This document shows positions 52,437 through 60,290 of a stretch of 64,000 nucleotides of DNA, one piece after another; positions within the stretch are counted from its first letter, which is position 1; the number at the start of each line of letters is the position of its first letter. Location of the stretch: positions 1-64,000 of IMG/VR virus record IMGVR_UViG_3300020182_002648; one strand, written 5' to 3'. The notes under the pieces were generated by a model, which worked only from the letters and a program-made list of their open reading frames with translations, was not told the DNA's origin and searched no databases. Both the position numbers and the translations under genes were made by a program. Source of the DNA: a virus.

Positions 52437-53894
52437 ATGTCACAGGTAAAACCCGCACAATCATATATTGATGAGGAAAGAGCTGGAACACTTCTTGAGA
52501 AGTGGGCACCAGTTTTGGATTACACATCCGATAACGTTAAACCTATCACCGATGATCATTCTCGTTTGAACACCGCTATTCTCTTGGAAAACCAAGAGTC
52601 ATGGTGCTTGAAAGAAAATTCAGCTGGTGGTGGAGCAGGCGGAGTCTTCGGATCTGCTGGAAGCATGGGTCAAGGAGGCGCAATGACGCCTGCTCAAGAC
52701 TTTTACGCTACTGGCGATGCACGTCTTCCAAAAATTCTCATCCCAATGATTCGTCGTACATTCCCTGAACTAATTACTAATGAGATCGTAGGCGTCCAAC
52801 CTATGAGTGGTCCAGTAGGGCTTGCTTTTGCAATGCGTTACAAATACGAAAATGAATCTTTGGGTTCAACAGGTATTGACGGACACACTAATGGGTCAAC
52901 AACTACTGGTAAAAACGGCCAACCTCGTACAGCAGGAAATGCTCCTGATAACGAAGCCGGATACCAGAAGTTAGACACACGTTTCACAGGTGCATCTTCT
53001 GCTGCTTTAAGTGGAGACGCTGGACTCGGAATCGACTTTGTCGATAACGATGCTGGTATCGCTGCTAAACTAGCTGATTATGAACTTACTGGTAACATCC
53101 CACAGATGGTAGTCTCTTTTGAGAAGACCGCTGTTGAGGCTGGAACTCGTAGGCTCGCTGCACGTTGGAGCGTAGAGCTTGAACAAGACCTCAAGAACAT
53201 GAATGGTATTGATATCGATACTGAATTAACAAACGCTATGTCGTATGAAATTCAGGCCGAAATTGACCGTGAAATGCTCATGAGAATGGTTCAAGTCGCC
53301 GCCAATGCTGGAAGTGGAAAAGGTGTTAGCACCTGGTCCCCCGCTAGTGCTGACGGACGTTGGATGGCTGAACGTAATCGTGATCTTTACGCCAAAATTA
53401 TCGTAGAAGCAAATCGTATTGCTATTCGTAATCGCCGTGGAGCAGCTAACTTTTTAGTTGCTACTCCTCGCGTTTGCGCTATCTTGGAAATGCTCCCTGA
53501 ATTTCAGTGGATGCAAGTTCAAGGTAATGTCAATACCCAACCCGTTGGAATTGCTCGCGTCGGTAACTTAGGTGGAAGATTTAACGTTTACCGCGATACA
53601 CGCACAGAAGCTCAATACGAAGACGGACAAAGGTCCGGCGGACGTATGGAGTATATTCTTTTAGGCTATAAAGGACCTGAGTTTTACGACACAGGAATCA
53701 TTTATTGCCCATACATCCCAGTGATGGTACAAAGAACTGTAGGTCCTAATGATTTTGCTCCACGTGTTGGACTGCTCACCCGTTATGGTGTAGTAGACAA
53801 TATCTTCGGTGCAGATCTTTATTACCACGTTATCGTAATCAAGAATCTCGGTGATTCGTTCACACCCGGCACTCAGTCGGTGTACTTCGGATAA
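52437..53894 (+). CDS. Major capsid protein (T4 gp23)
   Basis: 'LLEKWAPVL', 'TAILLENQ', 'GVQPMSGPVGLAFAMR', 'ELEQDLKNMNGID', 'EIDRE', 'YCPYIP', 'TRYG'. Confidence 0.98.
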   Translation: MSQVKPAQSYIDEERAGTLLEKWAPVLDYTSDNVKPITDDHSRLNTAILLENQESWCLKENSAGGGAGGVFGSAGSMGQGGAMTPAQDFYATGDARLPKILIPMIRRTFPELITNEIVGVQPMSGPVGLAFAMRYKYENESLGSTGIDGHTNGSTTTGKNGQPRTAGNAPDNEAGYQKLDTRFTGASSAALSGDAGLGIDFVDNDAGIAAKLADYELTGNIPQMVVSFEKTAVEAGTRRLAARWSVELEQDLKNMNGIDIDTELTNAMSYEIQAEIDREMLMRMVQVAANAGSGKGVSTWSPASADGRWMAERNRDLYAKIIVEANRIAIRNRRGAANFLVATPRVCAILEMLPEFQWMQVQGNVNTQPVGIARVGNLGGRFNVYRDTRTEAQYEDGQRSGGRMEYILLGYKGPEFYDTGIIYCPYIPVMVQRTVGPNDFAPRVGLLTRYGVVDNIFGADLYYHVIVIKNLGDSFTPGTQSVYFG

Positions 53895-53954: not shown

Positions 53955-53990
53955 ACGGTCTACCGATTGATTTCGGTAGACCGTTTTTTT
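53955..53990 (+). terminator. Rho-independent terminator of the head operon
   Basis: Perfect 12-bp stem acggtctaccga/tcggtagaccgt followed by a T run. Confidence 0.92.
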
Positions 53991-54008: not shown

Positions 54009-54038
54009 AAAAAAGGCCGCCCTGTGTAGAGCGACCTT
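54009..54038 (-). terminator. Rho-independent terminator of the queF operon
   Basis: Minus strand reads aaggtcgctct-acac-agggcggcctt-tttt (stem with G:U pairs). Confidence 0.8.
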
Positions 54039-54064: not shown

Positions 54065-54997
54065 TTATTGTTTGCTTGTCTTGACGTGAGGTATCTTCAC
54101 GTCAATCAAAGCAGGGCATGCCCAATCAATTGAGCTCTTATCATTAGCACGAACAGGATTGATATCAATACCACCTCGACGAGCATACAGACAGGTTACC
54201 ACGAGCTTCTCCGGAGACAATATATCATGTAGACGTTTGTATATTGTCTCACATATCTCTTCATGAAAGTGACATTCATCCCTAAACGAAATGATATACT
54301 TGAGCATGCTCTCAGGTGTCACGTGGTTCTGTCCTTTGATAGCAATCCATACATCACCCCAATCTGGTTGACTTGTGACACGACAATTACTCTTGAGCAA
54401 ACCACTATGAAACTTAGACCAGCTAGTGACAATACCACCCTCTGGTAGATCTTCTAGTTCTAACAAGTCTGGTGTCTCCGTGTATGTTTCCACATTCATA
54501 TCGGTTAGTAATTGAGGATCTAACACTTCCTCTAATGTCGTGTATCCTTTCCTGCTGAACAAAGGATCTCCACTAGCTTTGATATTAGATGGTATCACGT
54601 GTACCTCTACATGAGTCTCTAGCAACTTGCTCAAATCATCTGATGCATGTAAAGAGATAAACTCTAACACGCTTTCTTGACTGTTTCCGCATTTGAACAT
54701 GTTGAAACTATTGAAATACAACTTGATACTCTTGCTCTCAACAATGTACTTACTATCACACGGATACACGATTTTAGCCACCCCAGCAACAGGTAACCCA
54801 CCATTAGTCAACCCACTCACTTCATATGCATTCCATGTATCATATCCCACGAACGGTAGATCATCATCACTGATATCTAGATGCTTTCTATTGTTACTTC
54901 TAGGTTCTCTGACCAATAAATTACTATCGTATTGGTCCTTGTATTGAGATGTTTGTCCTAAATGAACTGATATATTACTATTGTCTAATTTTGTCAT
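54065..54997 (-). CDS. queF: NADPH-dependent preQ0 reductase QueF (bimodular type)
   Basis: QueF motif 'ESKSIKLYFNSF', catalytic 'LKSNCRVTSQPDWG', 'FHEEICE', 'YARRGGIDINP'. Confidence 0.96.
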   Translation of the reverse strand: MTKLDNSNISVHLGQTSQYKDQYDSNLLVREPRSNNRKHLDISDDDLPFVGYDTWNAYEVSGLTNGGLPVAGVAKIVYPCDSKYIVESKSIKLYFNSFNMFKCGNSQESVLEFISLHASDDLSKLLETHVEVHVIPSNIKASGDPLFSRKGYTTLEEVLDPQLLTDMNVETYTETPDLLELEDLPEGGIVTSWSKFHSGLLKSNCRVTSQPDWGDVWIAIKGQNHVTPESMLKYIISFRDECHFHEEICETIYKRLHDILSPEKLVVTCLYARRGGIDINPVRANDKSSIDWACPALIDVKIPHVKTSKQ

Positions 54998-55545
54998 TTT
55001 ATGTGCTTTAAAATTGTTTCCATCCTCTCTTCTACAGATCCACTTAACTTAACTATTCTATCCCTCCATGAATTCACACCTGGTAAGCTAACCGGAGATG
55101 TGAGAATCTCGTTGTATATATCTAGTATATTGTTACGAAACTGCATGTCAGTGCTCCTCACACCATCATCCTCGAATGGTATCTCATCAGGACATGTATA
55201 GAATATAACATCTAACTTGTTACCTAGAAACGATAGCATGTTCCGCGAGAACTCTCTCACCCAGGTTTCTACTAATCCTTGATCTGATAACCATTTTGTA
55301 TACACATAGCCATCCAATATACATCTATCGAGAATGACATTACCTGTCATACAGTGATTGTCTAGATGTTCTTTGAGAATATGTAACTGTGTCATATCAT
55401 TACCAGATGTATTTATATCATGACCTTCTCTAGCTACTTTTCTAGTAACCTCATCAACAAACTGCCAGTTGTTGAGATGTTTCTTACATTCAGCGAGTAA
55501 GGTTGACTTACCTGTACATTGTGCTCCTGTGAATCCTACTAACAT
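54994..55545 (-). CDS. P-loop nucleotide kinase (AAA_28/thymidylate-kinase-like)
   Basis: Walker A 'GAQCTGKST', 'LDRCILDGYVY', lid 'EDDGVR'. Confidence 0.8.
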   Translation of the reverse strand: MLVGFTGAQCTGKSTLLAECKKHLNNWQFVDEVTRKVAREGHDINTSGNDMTQLHILKEHLDNHCMTGNVILDRCILDGYVYTKWLSDQGLVETWVREFSRNMLSFLGNKLDVIFYTCPDEIPFEDDGVRSTDMQFRNNILDIYNEILTSPVSLPGVNSWRDRIVKLSGSVEERMETILKHIK

Positions 55546-55551
55546 ATTCTA

Positions 55552-55580
55552 ATTATATCCTATTTGTTTGGATAGTTCAA
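55552..55580 (-). promoter_or_regulatory. Sigma70-type promoter, leaderless geometry
   Basis: Minus strand TTGAAC-17 nt-TATAAT-TAGAAT-ATG(55545). Confidence 0.7.
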
Positions 55581-55895
55581 CTTGTCATTCATGTTATCTA
55601 AATTTTTTTCTGTCCACATTGCACACATCATGTTCCATACCACTGCAGCGGCATGATCTTCACTCTCATCTCCTTGCCACCATTGCATCATGTGTCTATT
55701 AGCACTATCGTAATACACACTAAGCGGCATGCCTTTGGTCCAATTGTTGTCTCCATACTTTGCCCCACCGGAGCGGTACCTCTCCATCACTCTCTCAAGT
55801 TCCTTAATAGGTACTAAGGACATGCATAATTTACCGTCTCCTGTGTCTCTCTGAGCCCCGGAGTCGAATTGTCTGTTGTTAGATGTATCTGTCAT
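55560..55895 (-). CDS. dATP/dGTP diphosphohydrolase-domain protein (DUF5664-like)
   Basis: 'FDSGAQRD...GK..MSLVP...GAKYGDNNWTKG...YYDSANRH...EDHAAAVVWN'. ATG at 55895 preferred. Confidence 0.85.
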   Translation of the reverse strand: MTDTSNNRQFDSGAQRDTGDGKLCMSLVPIKELERVMERYRSGGAKYGDNNWTKGMPLSVYYDSANRHMMQWWQGDESEDHAAAVVWNMMCAMWTEKNLDNMNDKLNYPNK

Positions 55896-56061
55896 ATCTT
55901 GAATTGAATGTTGAAACACCACACAATGCAGCAACAGTTGTTGATAATATGGCTTCTCCAGTCAACCCATGCATGGTCATCAGCACCGCTACCATCAGAT
56001 TGACAACACACATCACTATCAAAATCTGTCCTGCTAAATTAACATTGCTCCAACGTCTCAT
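55879..56061 (-). CDS. Small two-helix membrane protein
   Basis: 60 aa, two hydrophobic segments, same strand as the operon and overlapping the next gene. Confidence 0.5.
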   Translation of the reverse strand: MRRWSNVNLAGQILIVMCVVNLMVAVLMTMHGLTGEAILSTTVAALCGVSTFNSRYDRYI

Positions 56062-56133
56062 GCTACAAGTACAATTAGTATGTCTCTGTATAATATGACA
56101 GATAGATCTAATATCAATAACGTCAATATAAAT

Positions 56134-56382
56134 TTAATTCGTCCCATTGCTCTCTATACTGTCTATATTTGAGATGATATCACTCATTGTCAGTGATTGT
56201 GTTTCAATTCTACTAGAACCATTATTGTCAATGCGTTTATGAGTCAATCCTATGTTAAAATTGTTCACGTTGATATTAACATTATGATCAATGATCACAT
56301 GGTGAGATGTTTTAATTGTATTGCATCCAGTCAACCCAACAATCGTCATGGCTGTTCCTAATATCACGTTTATAATTTTCAT
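56134..56382 (-). CDS. Putative lipoprotein
   Basis: Signal peptide with lipobox 'LTGC' (Cys20). Confidence 0.65.
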   Translation of the reverse strand: MKIINVILGTAMTIVGLTGCNTIKTSHHVIIDHNVNINVNNFNIGLTHKRIDNNGSSRIETQSLTMSDIISNIDSIESNGTN

Positions 56383-56389
56383 TTTTACT

Positions 56390-56917
56390 TTATGTTTTTA
56401 ATAGTTGTATCCATAATTGTGTAGCCATTTCATGTAAACGGCAACTTAAATCATCTTCTCCATAAAAGTTATTGGAAGTTGATATCTCTGCTAAGACTTC
56501 ACCGGCATCTACCTCTGAAATCACTTCATGAATCACACAGCCTACTCTCTTGTACTTCTCATCTCCAGTGTTCGCTACACGCTTCTGAGGATCAGCGCCT
56601 TTTAGCTCCGGGTACAGTGTTATCAAACCGGGATGTAGGTTGTATATTTTATATTCTCTACATATCTTTGGTGGTATGATTCTCATCCATCCATGGAGAG
56701 TGACAATATCCACATCCTTGAGAACATTTCTGTAGTCCTCAACAGATGGTTTCTGTTGAACATATACATTGTCTCTGATACCTTCATGTATTCGTTCACT
56801 TCCTGGTGTGTTGTTTGTTATGATCACATCTGGATCACGTCCTATGATGTTAGATATATTCACGATCTCTGATCCTGTGTGACTGAACAACGCAGCCCAT
56901 CTTTTGTTTTTTAGCAT
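56390..56917 (-). CDS. PurN-like formyltransferase (probable preQ1 formyltransferase, DpdN-type)
   Basis: 'ALFSHTGS', 'LHGWMRII', catalytic 'NLHPGL', 'GCVIHEV...VDAG'; lies between TGT-like and queF genes with no other pur genes. Confidence 0.8.
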   Translation of the reverse strand: MLKNKRWAALFSHTGSEIVNISNIIGRDPDVIITNNTPGSERIHEGIRDNVYVQQKPSVEDYRNVLKDVDIVTLHGWMRIIPPKICREYKIYNLHPGLITLYPELKGADPQKRVANTGDEKYKRVGCVIHEVISEVDAGEVLAEISTSNNFYGEDDLSCRLHEMATQLWIQLLKT

Positions 56918-56918
56918 A

Positions 56919-57734
56919 TCATCTTTTGATTATTTTTTTAAACATTTTCGTGTTATACTCCAGTAGTTCCATGTCGATATCGTCAGCCTTATAGTCTATA
57001 AGATCTGCCAGGAGTGTTGAAGGTTTACTATGTAGTCCATGTATATCATTATATCTATAGTTCTTGATTGTGGCAACTACTGGGTTGCTCGTGTCAAGGC
57101 TCTTTATGTTATAAACATTGTTATCCACGTACCATCTAAACTCCTTCGCTAGACTACAACCTAATAGATGATGAGGTTTGTTCCAGTTCCAATGTCCCTC
57201 GTCAATCAATTGTCTTATAAACCGCTGCCTTCCTGAACACCATTTCTCTAAAGTAGGATTAGCTAATCCTGACTTCACACCAGTGTATCCATAATATTTG
57301 TAATCAAAACTAATAGCTATATAGTCAGCATGGTCACTCATGAACTTATAACACTTGAGTAGATGATCCCAATCCTTTCCCTGTACTACACCTATACGCA
57401 AAGCATCAGTAGTGTCAGTGTACTCATTCGTGAAACTCTTCCAGCTCTGTATTGTGTCCGCTGCATCTTCTAATACATCAGGTACTATATACCAGTTGGG
57501 TTGTAACTTGTCAATCCATTCAGCATATTTGATTGGATTGAAGCTCTTTCCTAACTCAAATATACTATTATCTAACAAAACTGAACATTTATTTTCATCA
57601 ACTAAATTCTTAAAAAATTTATAATAGTCAGGATGCGTTTCAAACAAATGTACTAATGCATAAGCGTAATCATTGTATTCTAGTGATTTGTCTAGAATTG
57701 AGATTGGACTCTCGTGTGATACTTCTATTACCAT
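56919..57734 (-). CDS. dpdA: TGT-fold 7-deazaguanine transglycosylase-like protein (divergent DpdA, DpdA3-like)
   Basis: TGT/DpdA-like motifs 'LLDNSIFE', 'IVPDV', 'GVVQG', 'HHLLG', 'SLDTS' plus queF context. Start at ATG 57734. Confidence 0.7.
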   Translation of the reverse strand: MVIEVSHESPISILDKSLEYNDYAYALVHLFETHPDYYKFFKNLVDENKCSVLLDNSIFELGKSFNPIKYAEWIDKLQPNWYIVPDVLEDAADTIQSWKSFTNEYTDTTDALRIGVVQGKDWDHLLKCYKFMSDHADYIAISFDYKYYGYTGVKSGLANPTLEKWCSGRQRFIRQLIDEGHWNWNKPHHLLGCSLAKEFRWYVDNNVYNIKSLDTSNPVVATIKNYRYNDIHGLHSKPSTLLADLIDYKADDIDMELLEYNTKMFKKIIKR

Positions 57735-57740
57735 ACACTT

Positions 57741-57769
57741 ATTATACACTCAAACGTTGCATATGTCAA
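57741..57769 (-). promoter_or_regulatory. Perfect consensus sigma70 promoter of the modification operon
   Basis: Minus strand TTGACA-17 nt-TATAAT-6 nt-ATG(57734). Confidence 0.9.
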
Positions 57770-57797: not shown

Positions 57798-60290
57798 ATG
57801 AGTATGAAGGACTTACCTGATTTAACAGTTGCCGGTCGCCGCGCAATGATGACAGCAAAGAAAATTGCAGTAGATTATAAGCATGATTTCATTACAACCG
57901 AACATGTGTTACTAGCTATATTAGACTGTGATAAGATAACGCCTGGATTAAAAGCCATTTCTAAGCAGTATGTCCAGATAGACGACTTTAAATCCTTTGT
58001 TATAACCAATTTACAAAAATACACTGGCCCGGAGAACATTGATATAGGCCTGGTCGAACCATCACCACGTACATTACAGATGCTAGCATTCGCTAGTGGA
58101 ATCGCCGGTGAGATGGGATCATCTCTTATTGATGTGGATCACATGTTACTAAGTATACTAGTAAGCGATTCAGGTAGTGGTAACAATTTATTCAGACTCA
58201 AAAATATAAATGTTGATGACCTTTACGAGATCATATATGAAGCTATCACTCCACGAGGAGTGAGGAAGAAACAAGACCAAAAACAAAAATCCGGTATTGG
58301 TGGCAGTCATACTAACACGGACACTGATGAGATCTATGAAGAGAGTATCATCGATAAATACGCAGCAAATTTAACTCAATTAGCGTTTAATGGTGAGATT
58401 GACCCTGTGATAGGTCGTGATGACGAAGTGCAAGATGCAATTCAGATACTATCTAGACGTACTAAGAATAACCCTGTGCTAGTAGGGGAGCCCGGTGTTG
58501 GTAAGACAGCTGTAATAGAACTACTAGCTCACAGAATAGTCAATGGAGACGTACCGCAAAACTTGAGAGGTAAACAGATATACACATTAGATTTAGCCGC
58601 TCTGGTAGCTGGTACTATCTACAGAGGTCAATTTGAGGAGAGGTTGAAGGAAGTTATATCATACGTCACACAACGAGAGGATCTAATTATATTTATTGAT
58701 GAGTTACACATGCTTGTTGGAGCTGGTGCAAGTACTGGTAGTATGGATGCTAGTAACATATTGAAGCCAGCGTTAGCAAGAGGCAAGTTGTCATGTATAG
58801 GAGCCACTACCACTAGTGAATATAAGGAGTTTATAGAAGGTGACGGAGCATTAGAGAGACGATTTCAATCAATACATGTAGGAGAACCTGGGACAGAAGA
58901 TTGTATTGCAATACTTCGTGGTATCAAAGAGAAATACGAAGACTATCACAATGTAAAATATAACAAATCCGTGATAAAAGAGATTGTAACATTGTGTGAA
59001 CGTTATATTGTCGATAAAAACTTTCCTGACAAAGCGATTGACATACTAGATGAATCTGGAGCAGTAGCAAAAGTGTCTAGATATCATGGTAATACGGAGG
59101 TACAGGCTCTTATAGATGATTTGTTACATGTTAGCAGAAGCAAGGAAAAGGCTGTAGAGACAGGTGAATATGATTTAGGCTTAGGATACAGAGAAACAGA
59201 GGAACAATTGGCTGTTAAGTTAGAAGAATGTATCGAGGAGAGAGAAGCTGGTGAACTATCTAGAAACATAAAGCCTTCCAGGATATCAATTGAAGATATC
59301 AGAGAGTTGATATCTAATAAATGTGGTGTTCCTGTTAGTAGCATGGAGGCTGATGAGCTGAAAGTGCTGTCAAATCTTGCTATCAGTATGAAGAACAAGG
59401 TGATCGGACAAGAAGATGGTATAGACAAGATATGTAATGCTATCAAAAGGTCTAGAGCTGGTGTGAGCAACCCTGATAAACCTATATGTTCGTTATTATT
59501 TTTAGGACCAACAGGCGTAGGCAAGACCTATCTTGCACATCAACTAGGAAAAGCTATGTTTCATGACGGTAATTTCAAACAATACGACATGTCTGAGTTC
59601 AGCGAGAAGCATGCCACTAGTAAATTGATTGGATCTCCTCCCGGCTACGTCGGATATGGTGAGGGAGGGAGCCTAACGGAGTATGTTAGACACAACCCGT
59701 ACTGTGTACTACTGTTCGATGAGATCGAAAAAGCTCATCCTGAGGTGCTACAACTGTTTCTCCAAGTGTTTGAGTACGGTTGCTTGACTGATAGTGAAGG
59801 ATTAGAGGTAAATTTTAAAAATACTATAATAGTACTGACAAGTAACATAGGTGCTCACAAGTTTGAGAAGCGACCTAATGTAGGATTTGGTACAGGAGAG
59901 ACATTAGAAGAAGGAGTAGTGGCGGAACTCAAGAAGATGTATGCTCCAGAATTTATAAATCGCCTTGATGAGGTGGTTATATTCAACAAATTGACAGACA
60001 AAGACATCACATCTATTTGTACCGGGCTGTTAAAGGGTGTGAAACGTACTCTCAAGAATAACAATGGCAAGATAATTAACTTTTCTAAGGATATCGCTGA
60101 TCATATTCTATCTAAATCAAGAGACGCAGCATATGGTGCTCGTCCTTTGAAGAGAATCATCACAGAATTTATAGAGACACCACTAGCTGAGTTCATTATA
60201 TCTAACGATTCATCCATCCGCAAGATAAATGCTGAGGTTGTTGATGAAGATATACAGTTTACTGCTGCTTCTGTTGTTCAGCGTACTTGA
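57798..60290 (+). CDS. clpC: ATP-dependent Clp protease ATPase subunit (ClpC-type)
   Basis: Clp N repeats (TEHVLLAIL), two Walker A motifs (GEPGVGKT, GPTGVGKT), UVR-like middle helix, ClpP-docking 'VGF' loop, 'YGARPLKR'. Confidence 0.92.
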   Translation: MSMKDLPDLTVAGRRAMMTAKKIAVDYKHDFITTEHVLLAILDCDKITPGLKAISKQYVQIDDFKSFVITNLQKYTGPENIDIGLVEPSPRTLQMLAFASGIAGEMGSSLIDVDHMLLSILVSDSGSGNNLFRLKNINVDDLYEIIYEAITPRGVRKKQDQKQKSGIGGSHTNTDTDEIYEESIIDKYAANLTQLAFNGEIDPVIGRDDEVQDAIQILSRRTKNNPVLVGEPGVGKTAVIELLAHRIVNGDVPQNLRGKQIYTLDLAALVAGTIYRGQFEERLKEVISYVTQREDLIIFIDELHMLVGAGASTGSMDASNILKPALARGKLSCIGATTTSEYKEFIEGDGALERRFQSIHVGEPGTEDCIAILRGIKEKYEDYHNVKYNKSVIKEIVTLCERYIVDKNFPDKAIDILDESGAVAKVSRYHGNTEVQALIDDLLHVSRSKEKAVETGEYDLGLGYRETEEQLAVKLEECIEEREAGELSRNIKPSRISIEDIRELISNKCGVPVSSMEADELKVLSNLAISMKNKVIGQEDGIDKICNAIKRSRAGVSNPDKPICSLLFLGPTGVGKTYLAHQLGKAMFHDGNFKQYDMSEFSEKHATSKLIGSPPGYVGYGEGGSLTEYVRHNPYCVLLFDEIEKAHPEVLQLFLQVFEYGCLTDSEGLEVNFKNTIIVLTSNIGAHKFEKRPNVGFGTGETLEEGVVAELKKMYAPEFINRLDEVVIFNKLTDKDITSICTGLLKGVKRTLKNNNGKIINFSKDIADHILSKSRDAAYGARPLKRIITEFIETPLAEFIISNDSSIRKINAEVVDEDIQFTAASVVQRT

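Follow-up and report, generated by a model that had tools for sequence, protein, structure and literature searches.

A DpdA3, kinase and QueF operon of an uncultured marine T4-like phage, and a possible pre-replicative route to complete guanine replacement

The stretch of DNA considered here (the window) comprises the first 64 kb of a 146,809-bp IMG/VR phage record, IMGVR_UViG_3300020182_002648, with a CheckV completeness of 65%. Its source is an uncultured marine T4-like phage, known only from metagenomes. The minus strand of the window bears a single operon, bounded by a promoter-like site (57769) and a terminator-like hairpin (54013), that encodes in order a DpdA3-subfamily transglycosylase, the PurN paralogue DpdN, two small open reading frames (ORFs) of 82 and 60 amino acids (aa), a stand-alone PF18909 protein, a P-loop kinase of Pfam family AAA_28 and a bimodular QueF. 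When the proteins of the window were compared by tblastn with 50,697 deposited phage records, the closest match to the operon was the gene cluster of Flavobacterium phage vB_FspM_immuto (hereafter immuto), at 31–48% identity. The DNA of immuto has all of its guanine measured as 7-(formylamino)methyl-7-deazaguanine, or fdPreQ1 (PMC10516641). Both phages are T4-like and of myovirus type, and both follow the order DpdA3, DpdN, kinase, QueF (44, 45, 31 and 48% identity, respectively), with immuto adding a small ORF after DpdA3. In immuto, by contrast, the genes immediately upstream are queD, queE, a phosphoribosyltransferase (PRTase) gene, folE and a MazG-like (PRA-PH) gene, with PolA on the downstream side; the window has none of these nearby. 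Conversely, the interval from DpdN to the kinase contains, in the window only, two small membrane or lipoprotein ORFs and the gene of a PF18909 protein. Judged from its sequence, the gene set is a further, diverged member of the known DpdA3/DpdN system for fdPreQ1. Because the operon is homologous to that of immuto, all or nearly all guanine in the virion DNA is most likely replaced by fdPreQ1.

The first gene spans 56919..57734 on the minus strand when read from its ATG, or extends to 57749 when read from an alternative GTG, yielding a protein of 271 or 276 aa. Its best match is an immuto protein annotated as "DNA guanine transglycosylase, DpdA" (44% identity, E 3e-54), followed by Campylobacter Firehammervirus proteins including CP220 gp056 (41–42%) and, more distantly, by Cellulophaga phage phiST CGPG_00065 (~28%, E 6e-5). 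The immuto, CP220 and phiST proteins were all named DpdA3 by Cui et al. 2023 (PMC10516641). The family is large, comprising 3,940 proteins at E <= 1e-3, or 1,173 representatives at 50% identity. An AlphaFold2 model built on 69 homologues reached a predicted local distance difference test (pLDDT) score of 96 and superimposed on the archaeal tRNA-guanine transglycosylase (TGT) 1iq8 with a VIA-align Z of 17.4 (root-mean-square deviation, rmsd, 3.1 Å over 234 residues) and on the Zymomonas mobilis TGT with a Z of 17.0; over both TGTs the rmsd ranges from 3.1 to 3.3 Å for ~234 residues, and Foldseek assigned the TGT fold with a probability of 1.00. Together, the homology and the model identify the product as a DpdA3-subfamily protein with a predicted TGT fold. 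At the sequence level, Pfam and NCBIfam gave no match to the protein, and comparison with bacterial TGT gave none of significance (hhalign probability 8.8%). The invariant residues include D55 and S57 (LDNS), D86, H189 and G192 (HHLLG), and D214 and S216 (DTS), D55 and D214 being invariant among the 69 homologues. The LDNS and DTS motifs align with FLDSG of the DpdA1 of Enterobacteria phage 9g and with SIDS of bDpdA 7ui4, both alignments being of low confidence. Two properties that might have been thought to argue against DNA binding were set aside: the zinc subdomain of TGT, with its CxCxxC...H motif, is absent from the DpdA3 family, yet it is also absent from the DNA-acting 9g DpdA1, and the acidic isoelectric point of the family (median 5.5) is not decisive. 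Natural fusions among the cluster representatives of the family include two of DpdA3 with DpdN (P0133 and P0170) and one of DpdA3 with DUF3310.

DpdN and QueF would supply the chemistry characteristic of the immuto system. DpdN (56390..56917, minus strand, 175 aa) matches Formyl_trans_N (PF00551, E 3.6e-13) and shares 45% identity with its immuto counterpart. Because its score against the PurN model TIGR00639 lies far under the cut-off, it is a paralogue of PurN rather than PurN itself. The translation contains NLHPG and DAG motifs, which, by eye, we take to be the Asn-His-Asp positions of PurN. QueF, the preQ0-to-preQ1 reductase (54065..54997, minus strand, 310 aa), comprises a QueF_N and a QueF domain (PF14819, E 3e-32; PF14489, E 1e-21), scores 252 bits against TIGR03138 and is 48% identical to immuto QueF. 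Its translation carries ESKSIKLYF, presumably the QueF motif, and a cysteine in SNCRVTSQPDWG that we assume, again by eye, to be the catalytic one. The original prediction, made from the sequence alone, had recognized five minus-strand genes here, and the coordinates of all five were correct; the two small ORFs between DpdN and the PF18909 gene had gone unmentioned. Its call of a DpdA-like TGT is borne out by homology to the DpdA3 of modified phages and by the TGT fold at Z 17, and sequence comparison places the protein with DpdA3 (immuto, 44%), the match to 9g DpdA1 being insignificant (hhalign probability 2%). Likewise, the PurN-like gene that it had linked to formyl-preQ1 is 45% identical to immuto DpdN, contains Formyl_trans_N and lies beside DpdA3, the QueF that it had named has both QueF modules and 252 bits against TIGR03138, and its reading of the whole as a 7-deazaguanine cluster agrees with a DpdA3, DpdN and QueF module of the fdPreQ1 type in the same order as in immuto.

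The gene that bears most directly on mechanism is that of the kinase (54994..55545, minus strand, 183 aa; AAA_28, E 3.6e-15). The protein has a GAQCTGKST P-loop and an invariant DRC motif, and is 31% identical to the immuto kinase, which is annotated as "thymidylate kinase". Searches of the PDB by sequence and of NCBIfam found nothing significant for it. Its AlphaFold2 model (pLDDT 89.7) best matched the ribosylnicotinamide kinase (RNK) domain of NadR (Z 17.1), then human deoxyguanosine kinase (Z 15.9), and then vaccinia thymidylate kinase and the Drosophila deoxynucleoside kinase Dm-dNK (Z 14.7 for both), while the top ranks of Foldseek were held by deoxyadenosine, deoxycytidine and thymidylate kinases. 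Guanylate kinase was not among the structural matches listed. On the evidence of the model, the protein is predicted to be a nucleoside or nucleoside-monophosphate (NMP) kinase.

The proximity of this kinase to DpdA3 is not fortuitous: it is a core partner and conserved as such. Of the related viral loci with sufficient flanking sequence (83 distinct ones), 81 have it in the operon and 47 have DpdN, such that the minimal conserved unit is DpdA3, kinase and QueF. Outside DpdA3 phages, the deposited phage records contain no close homologue of the kinase. In CP220, which has neither DpdN nor QueF, the kinase directly follows DpdA3, and a protein combining HD and AAA_33 domains directly precedes it. 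The phiST gene immediately upstream of DpdA3, CGPG_00066, encodes a P-loop kinase of another Pfam family, AAA_18, and a MazG-like gene lies two genes further upstream. CGPG_00066 had been dismissed as lacking homologues (PMC10516641). All three phages whose complete replacement is established, immuto, CP220 and phiST, consequently pair DpdA3 with a P-loop kinase, and since the phiST kinase belongs to AAA_18 and the others to AAA_28, such a kinase has been recruited at least twice. The resemblance of CP220 and phiST to the operon described here extends to a phosphohydrolase one or two genes off (HD and MazG, respectively). They differ from it in lacking QueF and DpdN, in the AAA_18 family of the phiST kinase, and in their end products, an amido- or unsubstituted 7-deazaguanine: complete replacement by dDG has been measured in phiST and that by dADG in CP220, a Firehammervirus, is cited (PMC10516641). 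An adjacent kinase is also found at divergent DpdA3 loci (35–43% identity), namely L108 (dUTPase, DpdA3, AAA_28, an unassigned gene, QueC, FolE2), L112 (DUF3310, dUTPase, MazG, DpdA3, a CxxCxxCC protein, AAA_28, QueF) and L118 (AAA_28, DpdA3, an unassigned gene, dUTPase/DCD), and one cluster representative is a continuous AAA_28-DpdA3 fusion protein, followed by QueC. Distant homologues of the kinase in Streptomyces phages were considered as further partners of DpdA3 and rejected, as the 263-aa "methyltransferase" upstream of them is unrelated to DpdA3.

Two of these outlying systems merit separate description. At L112:6001-8473, a Logan contig with a DpdA3 relative of 43% identity, the DpdA3 bears a 316-aa N-terminal extension for a total of 586 aa, and the slot of DpdN is taken by the CxxCxxCC (PF03692, YkgJ-like) protein, of the kind called DpdM by Cui et al.; this suggests a DpdA3-type methyl-preQ1 variant. 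In Bacillus phage BSTP12 (L115:3336-4684), a DpdA3-like protein is more remote (26% identity) and weakly matches DUF6610/DpdA4; its gene is flanked by those of a small P-loop protein and of DNA polymerase I, and queD, a radical-SAM gene and folE lie upstream of it. Bacillus siphophages may have a related kinase-linked system.

Besides the kinase, nucleotide phosphohydrolases recur in the vicinity of DpdA3. A PRA-PH/MazG-like protein is found in immuto, an HD protein in CP220 and MazG in phiST, and MazG, dUTPase or both are found at L110, L112, L108 and L118. The candidate of this kind in the window is the PF18909 protein (55560..55895, minus strand, 111 aa, E 7.8e-21), whose domain, dGTP_diPhyd_N, was formerly DUF5664 and forms the N-terminal part of the dATP/dGTP diphosphohydrolase of the phiVC8 type (PF18909 plus PF04447; phiVC8/SH-Ab 15497 MazZ-2). 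The match spans positions 2–98 of the 99 in the profile, and the protein ends after the domain. It contains conserved acidic residues. Sequence searches of the PDB and NCBIfam gave nothing significant for it, and its nearest Atlas clusters are stand-alone PF18909 phage proteins, a common phage family. Homology to MazG (hhalign probability 0.2%) was rejected. Because its homologue at L110 (hhalign probability 98.6%) adjoins a separate MazG gene, an accessory or partner role is suggested for the PF18909 protein; that it clears dGTP by converting it to dGMP is possible in view of those acidic residues, as a conjecture. The original prediction had made it a dGTP-removing diphosphohydrolase: the PF18909 domain is indeed present, but only this N-terminal domain, devoid of similarity to MazG and in a slot that varies among relatives. 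The slot, between DpdN and the kinase, is occupied in relatives by PF18909, by an unrelated 115-aa Nmad1/DUF1599-like protein (p115), or by nothing. The matches of the 115-aa protein to Nmad1/DUF1599 are weak (best E 0.0023, under the Pfam cut-off), and its homology to PF18909 was rejected in turn (hhalign probability 0.9%), the two sharing only a short KYG/DYG-N motif. One or the other accessory gene is present at 44 of 47 DpdN-positive loci versus none of 36 DpdN-negative ones. This association was discarded as functional evidence: it is phylogenetically confounded because the DpdN-positive loci form essentially one clade on the DpdA3 tree, and its 3 changes amount to too few independent pairs.

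Several neighboring arrangements in relatives also concern nucleotide and base supply. Directly upstream of DpdA3, DpdN and PolA at L110 (L110:467-1782) stand a Vut_1 (PF02592) membrane protein, MazG and PF18909. We take Vut_1 to be the family of the YhhQ preQ0/preQ1 importer, and base import may occur in this lineage, as may a pairing of PF18909 with a MazG encoded by its own gene. At L108:4230-5987, the dUTPase directly upstream of DpdA3 is apparently split by an intein, given matches to both Intein_splicing and dUTPase. At L016:9414-10373, DpdN and the Nmad1-like gene are separated by a gene of the inosine-5′-monophosphate dehydrogenase (IMPDH)/GMP-reductase family (PF00478, E 7e-55), and the same insertion recurs in six further loci (L017, L075, L086, L087, L089 and L090), a possible sign that guanine nucleotides are actively depleted or rerouted.

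How might these components cooperate? Three steps are well supported by homology: QueF would reduce preQ0 to preQ1, DpdN would formylate the aminomethyl group, and DpdA3 would swap guanine for the 7-deazaguanine. As to where the swap takes place, we infer that DpdA3 exchanges the base on a free deoxyguanosine nucleotide or nucleoside rather than on DNA. The adjacent kinase would then phosphorylate the product, host kinases would finish the triphosphate, and the phage polymerase would build modified DNA directly, the PF18909 protein being an accessory part of this nucleotide branch. We give this pre-replicative route, which leans in part on analogy, slightly more credence than its negation. It is proposed because the kinase is conserved, twice recruited and once fused to DpdA3, and because nucleoside triphosphate (NTP) phosphohydrolases recur beside DpdA3. 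It is proposed also because DpdA3 produced no DNA modification in Escherichia coli, in a model where DpdA1 and DpdA2 do insert preQ0, and because cells infected with CP220 were found to contain the dADG nucleoside in free form (PMC10516641). A further reason is that a modified-dGTP route was once proposed for the Campylobacter phages (PMC6884629). Congruent with it, the locus of 9g DpdA1, an enzyme shown to act on DNA, has no kinase. The two systems share a superfamily, an alignable Asp motif (LDNS/FLDSG) and the lack of a CxCxxC zinc motif, but the 9g cluster contains neither kinase nor NTPase, and its replacement is partial, ~25% of G, and post-replicative. Cap10 is reported to be a TGT-family enzyme with a non-nucleic-acid substrate (10.1101/2025.04.06.647259).

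The analogy invoked here is with two pathways of complete replacement, that of 5-hydroxymethylcytosine (hmC) in T4, where gp56 dCTPase, gp42 dCMP hydroxymethylase and gp1 deoxynucleoside-monophosphate (dNMP) kinase act, and that of 2-aminoadenine (dZ), with MazZ, PurZ and DatZ, in which MazZ makes dGMP from dGTP for PurZ (PMC8342488). Both have the logic of phosphohydrolase, rewriter and kinase proposed for the present operon, and the phiVC8-type MazZ has PF18909 at its N terminus. Unlike in those pathways, the rewriter here would be a TGT-fold base-exchange enzyme, and the MazZ/MazG catalytic domain is absent from the operon; the resemblance is therefore one of functional analogy, not of homology of the core enzyme. 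A pre-replicative reading had already been put forward in the original prediction. It has since gained the kinase partnership, the fusion, the nucleoside or NMP kinase fold and the recurrent NTP phosphohydrolases, and has lost its assignment of the hydrolase.

A number of observations weigh against the nucleotide-level proposal. Characterized relatives of DpdA3, namely TGT, ArcTGT and DpdA1/2, all act on polymers, and the proposal contradicts the only paper on DpdA3, which advances post-replicative insertion (PMC10516641). By its modelled fold, the kinase is compatible with either a nucleoside or an NMP as acceptor. No kinase is seen on the available short contigs of the DpdA3 loci L110, L121, L119 and L120, the first two of which read DpdA3, DpdN, PolA, and in Campylobacter phage CC_R7 the kinase lies far from the DpdA3-like gene. 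In the window, no catalytic MazG or MazZ domain is recognizable in the 111-aa PF18909 protein, and neither a MazG (PF03819) nor a dUTPase domain was found anywhere in the 146.8-kb record. Nor did QueC, FolE or QueD give a Pfam match in that record, which is 65% complete. Finally, if replacement were post-replicative, salvage of guanine and provision of GTP for preQ0 synthesis would be a possible task for the kinase, the PRTase and GMP reductase.

The provision of preQ0 and the fate of guanine can be followed somewhat further in the remainder of the record. The absence of folE, queD, queE and queC from the window, as originally reported, holds and extends to the whole 146,809 bp, and the suggestion that these genes be sought elsewhere in the genome yielded none. 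A QueE-like gene was likewise not found in the record, its five radical-SAM genes (99–107 kb) being unlike immuto QueE by tblastn. In four of five larger relatives, QueC lies ~50 kb from DpdA3; a QueC at the syntenic position was rejected, the site in the window that matches QueC of relative G004 being occupied by structural genes. The FolE, QueD, QueE and QueC needed for preQ0 may be encoded in the missing third of the genome, or the host may provide the precursor. The record does encode a PRTase at G000:C1:86979-87476 (minus strand, 165 aa; PF00156, E 1e-16), ~30 kb from the operon, with 27% identity to the immuto PRTase located between queE and folE. It could salvage the released guanine or make a deazaguanine ribonucleotide. 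As a separate observation, a minus-strand operon at G000:C1:~92000-112600 (loci L105 and L106) consists of ~20 tightly packed genes with unusual content for a phage, including the five radical-SAM proteins (C1:99324-107121); most of its other scanned genes have no Pfam match.

The published account is the chief competitor. Ordinary DNA would be made first, whereupon DpdA3, as an unusually efficient DNA-guanine transglycosylase, would swap every G for preQ1 or formyl-preQ1, while the kinase, PRTase and GMP reductase recycle guanine into GTP for FolE or tune nucleotide pools. It has precedent in that DpdA3 belongs to the TGT/DpdA superfamily, whose characterized members act on tRNA or DNA, and in that its Asp motifs align with those of the DNA-acting DpdA1 and bDpdA. 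The PRTase gene, flanked by queE and folE in immuto and also present in this record, would fit guanine salvage, and some DpdA3 loci have no adjacent kinase. Cui et al. 2023 argue from the presence of DpdA in every modified phage (PMC10516641). Set against this, the recurrence of MazG, dUTPase and HD neighbors is not readily accounted for, and both the kinase-DpdA3 fusion and the second, independent kinase family in phiST are left unexplained. The modelled fold of the kinase is similar to that of nucleoside and dTMP kinases, with guanylate kinase missing from the listed matches, and DpdA3 produced no DNA modification in E. coli, in the model where DpdA1 and DpdA2 insert preQ0. Moreover, to our knowledge, every other complete base replacement of known route (hmC, 5-hydroxymethyluracil or hmU, deoxyuridine or dU, and dZ) is pre-replicative. 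We regard post-replicative exchange as a real possibility, yet one that is more doubtful than probable.

Two further explanations relocate the chemistry altogether. The deazaguanine might be joined to phosphoribosyl pyrophosphate (PRPP) by the PRTase, and then carried to the deoxynucleoside triphosphate by the kinase and ribonucleotide reductase, leaving DpdA3 to patch residual G or to act on (r)GMP or GTP. PRTases do act on preQ0 in toyocamycin-type pathways, PRTase genes are found in immuto, at L012 and L013 and in this record, and the top structural match of the kinase, NadR RNK, is a ribonucleoside kinase. Such a ribonucleotide route is nevertheless improbable: it is the kinase that is linked to DpdA3, while the PRTase is unlinked at most loci and ~30 kb from the operon here, and only a minor role would remain for the universally conserved DpdA3. 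The module might instead leave DNA unmodified and boost queuosine-type modification of tRNA or the preQ1 metabolism of the host, given that QueF and a TGT-fold enzyme are the bacterial steps to tRNA queuosine and that phage genes of this pathway were once interpreted in such terms (PMC6884629). This last explanation is very improbable indeed, as the DNA of the closest characterized homologues, in immuto, CP220 and phiST, is fully modified, DpdN, the kinase and the NTPase neighbors have no role in tRNA queuosine synthesis, and the sequence of DpdA3 does not match that of bacterial TGT significantly.

For the three groups of phages in which 100% of the guanine is replaced, DpdA3 is the sole enzyme that has been proposed for the task. 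The kinase and NTPase partners point to proteins and substrates worth testing. Should DpdA3 prove to act on mononucleotides, this would be a new class of reaction for the TGT superfamily and the first pre-replicative pathway for complete replacement of guanine; it would overturn the published position that 7-deazaguanines always enter DNA after replication, and could open an enzymatic route to 7-substituted 7-deaza-dGTPs. A nucleotide-level mechanism for DpdA3 or its kinase was not found in the literature searched, whose coverage stopped short of subscription journals.

The boundaries and the smaller features of the operon complete its description. Its promoter-like site (TTGACA-17-TATAAT; 57741..57769, minus strand) matches the sigma-70 consensus at 12 of 12 positions, with the −35 box at 57769, precisely the coordinate at which the original prediction had ended the cluster. 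Because the −10 box ends 7 nucleotides (nt) before the DpdA3 ATG at 57734, the mRNA may be leaderless there; the alternative GTG at 57749 falls within the promoter spacer. Packing is tight, the DpdN start overlapping the preceding DpdA3 stop, and the QueF start overlapping the kinase stop by 4 nt. On the 3′ side of QueF, a terminator-like hairpin with a T-run (54013..54038, minus strand) is convergent with the plus-strand capsid-gene terminator at 53955-53984, the Gp23-type major capsid gene ending at 53894. Of the two small ORFs, the 82-aa one (56134..56382, minus strand) has a lipoprotein-like signal peptide with lipobox LTGC and is poorly conserved. The 60-aa hydrophobic one (55879..56061, minus strand) overlaps the start of the PF18909 gene by 17 nt; PF18909-bearing relatives keep it at the same position, with ~40% identity. 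A link of either ORF to precursor uptake would be speculation. Divergent from the DpdA3 promoter region, a plus-strand gene at 57798-60290 encodes an 830-aa double-AAA+ protein of the ClpA/ClpB type, with Clp_N, AAA, AAA_lid_9, AAA_2 and ClpB_D2-small domains, and many relatives (L005, L008, L012, L015, L016 and L019) have large ORFs, of 828–1018 aa, next to their DpdA3 cluster.

The operon recurs at near identity in marine metagenome runs from several studies dated 2018–2023, as well as in two metatranscriptome runs of one study. Contigs from the RNA libraries of one study cover the whole operon at ~98.5% identity; this is compatible with expression, DNA carry-over being possible and neither strand nor transcript ends being readable from contigs. 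The metatranscriptome strain variant, ~1.5% diverged, has a 13-nt insertion in the spacer between DpdN and the 82-aa ORF, at window position 56381.

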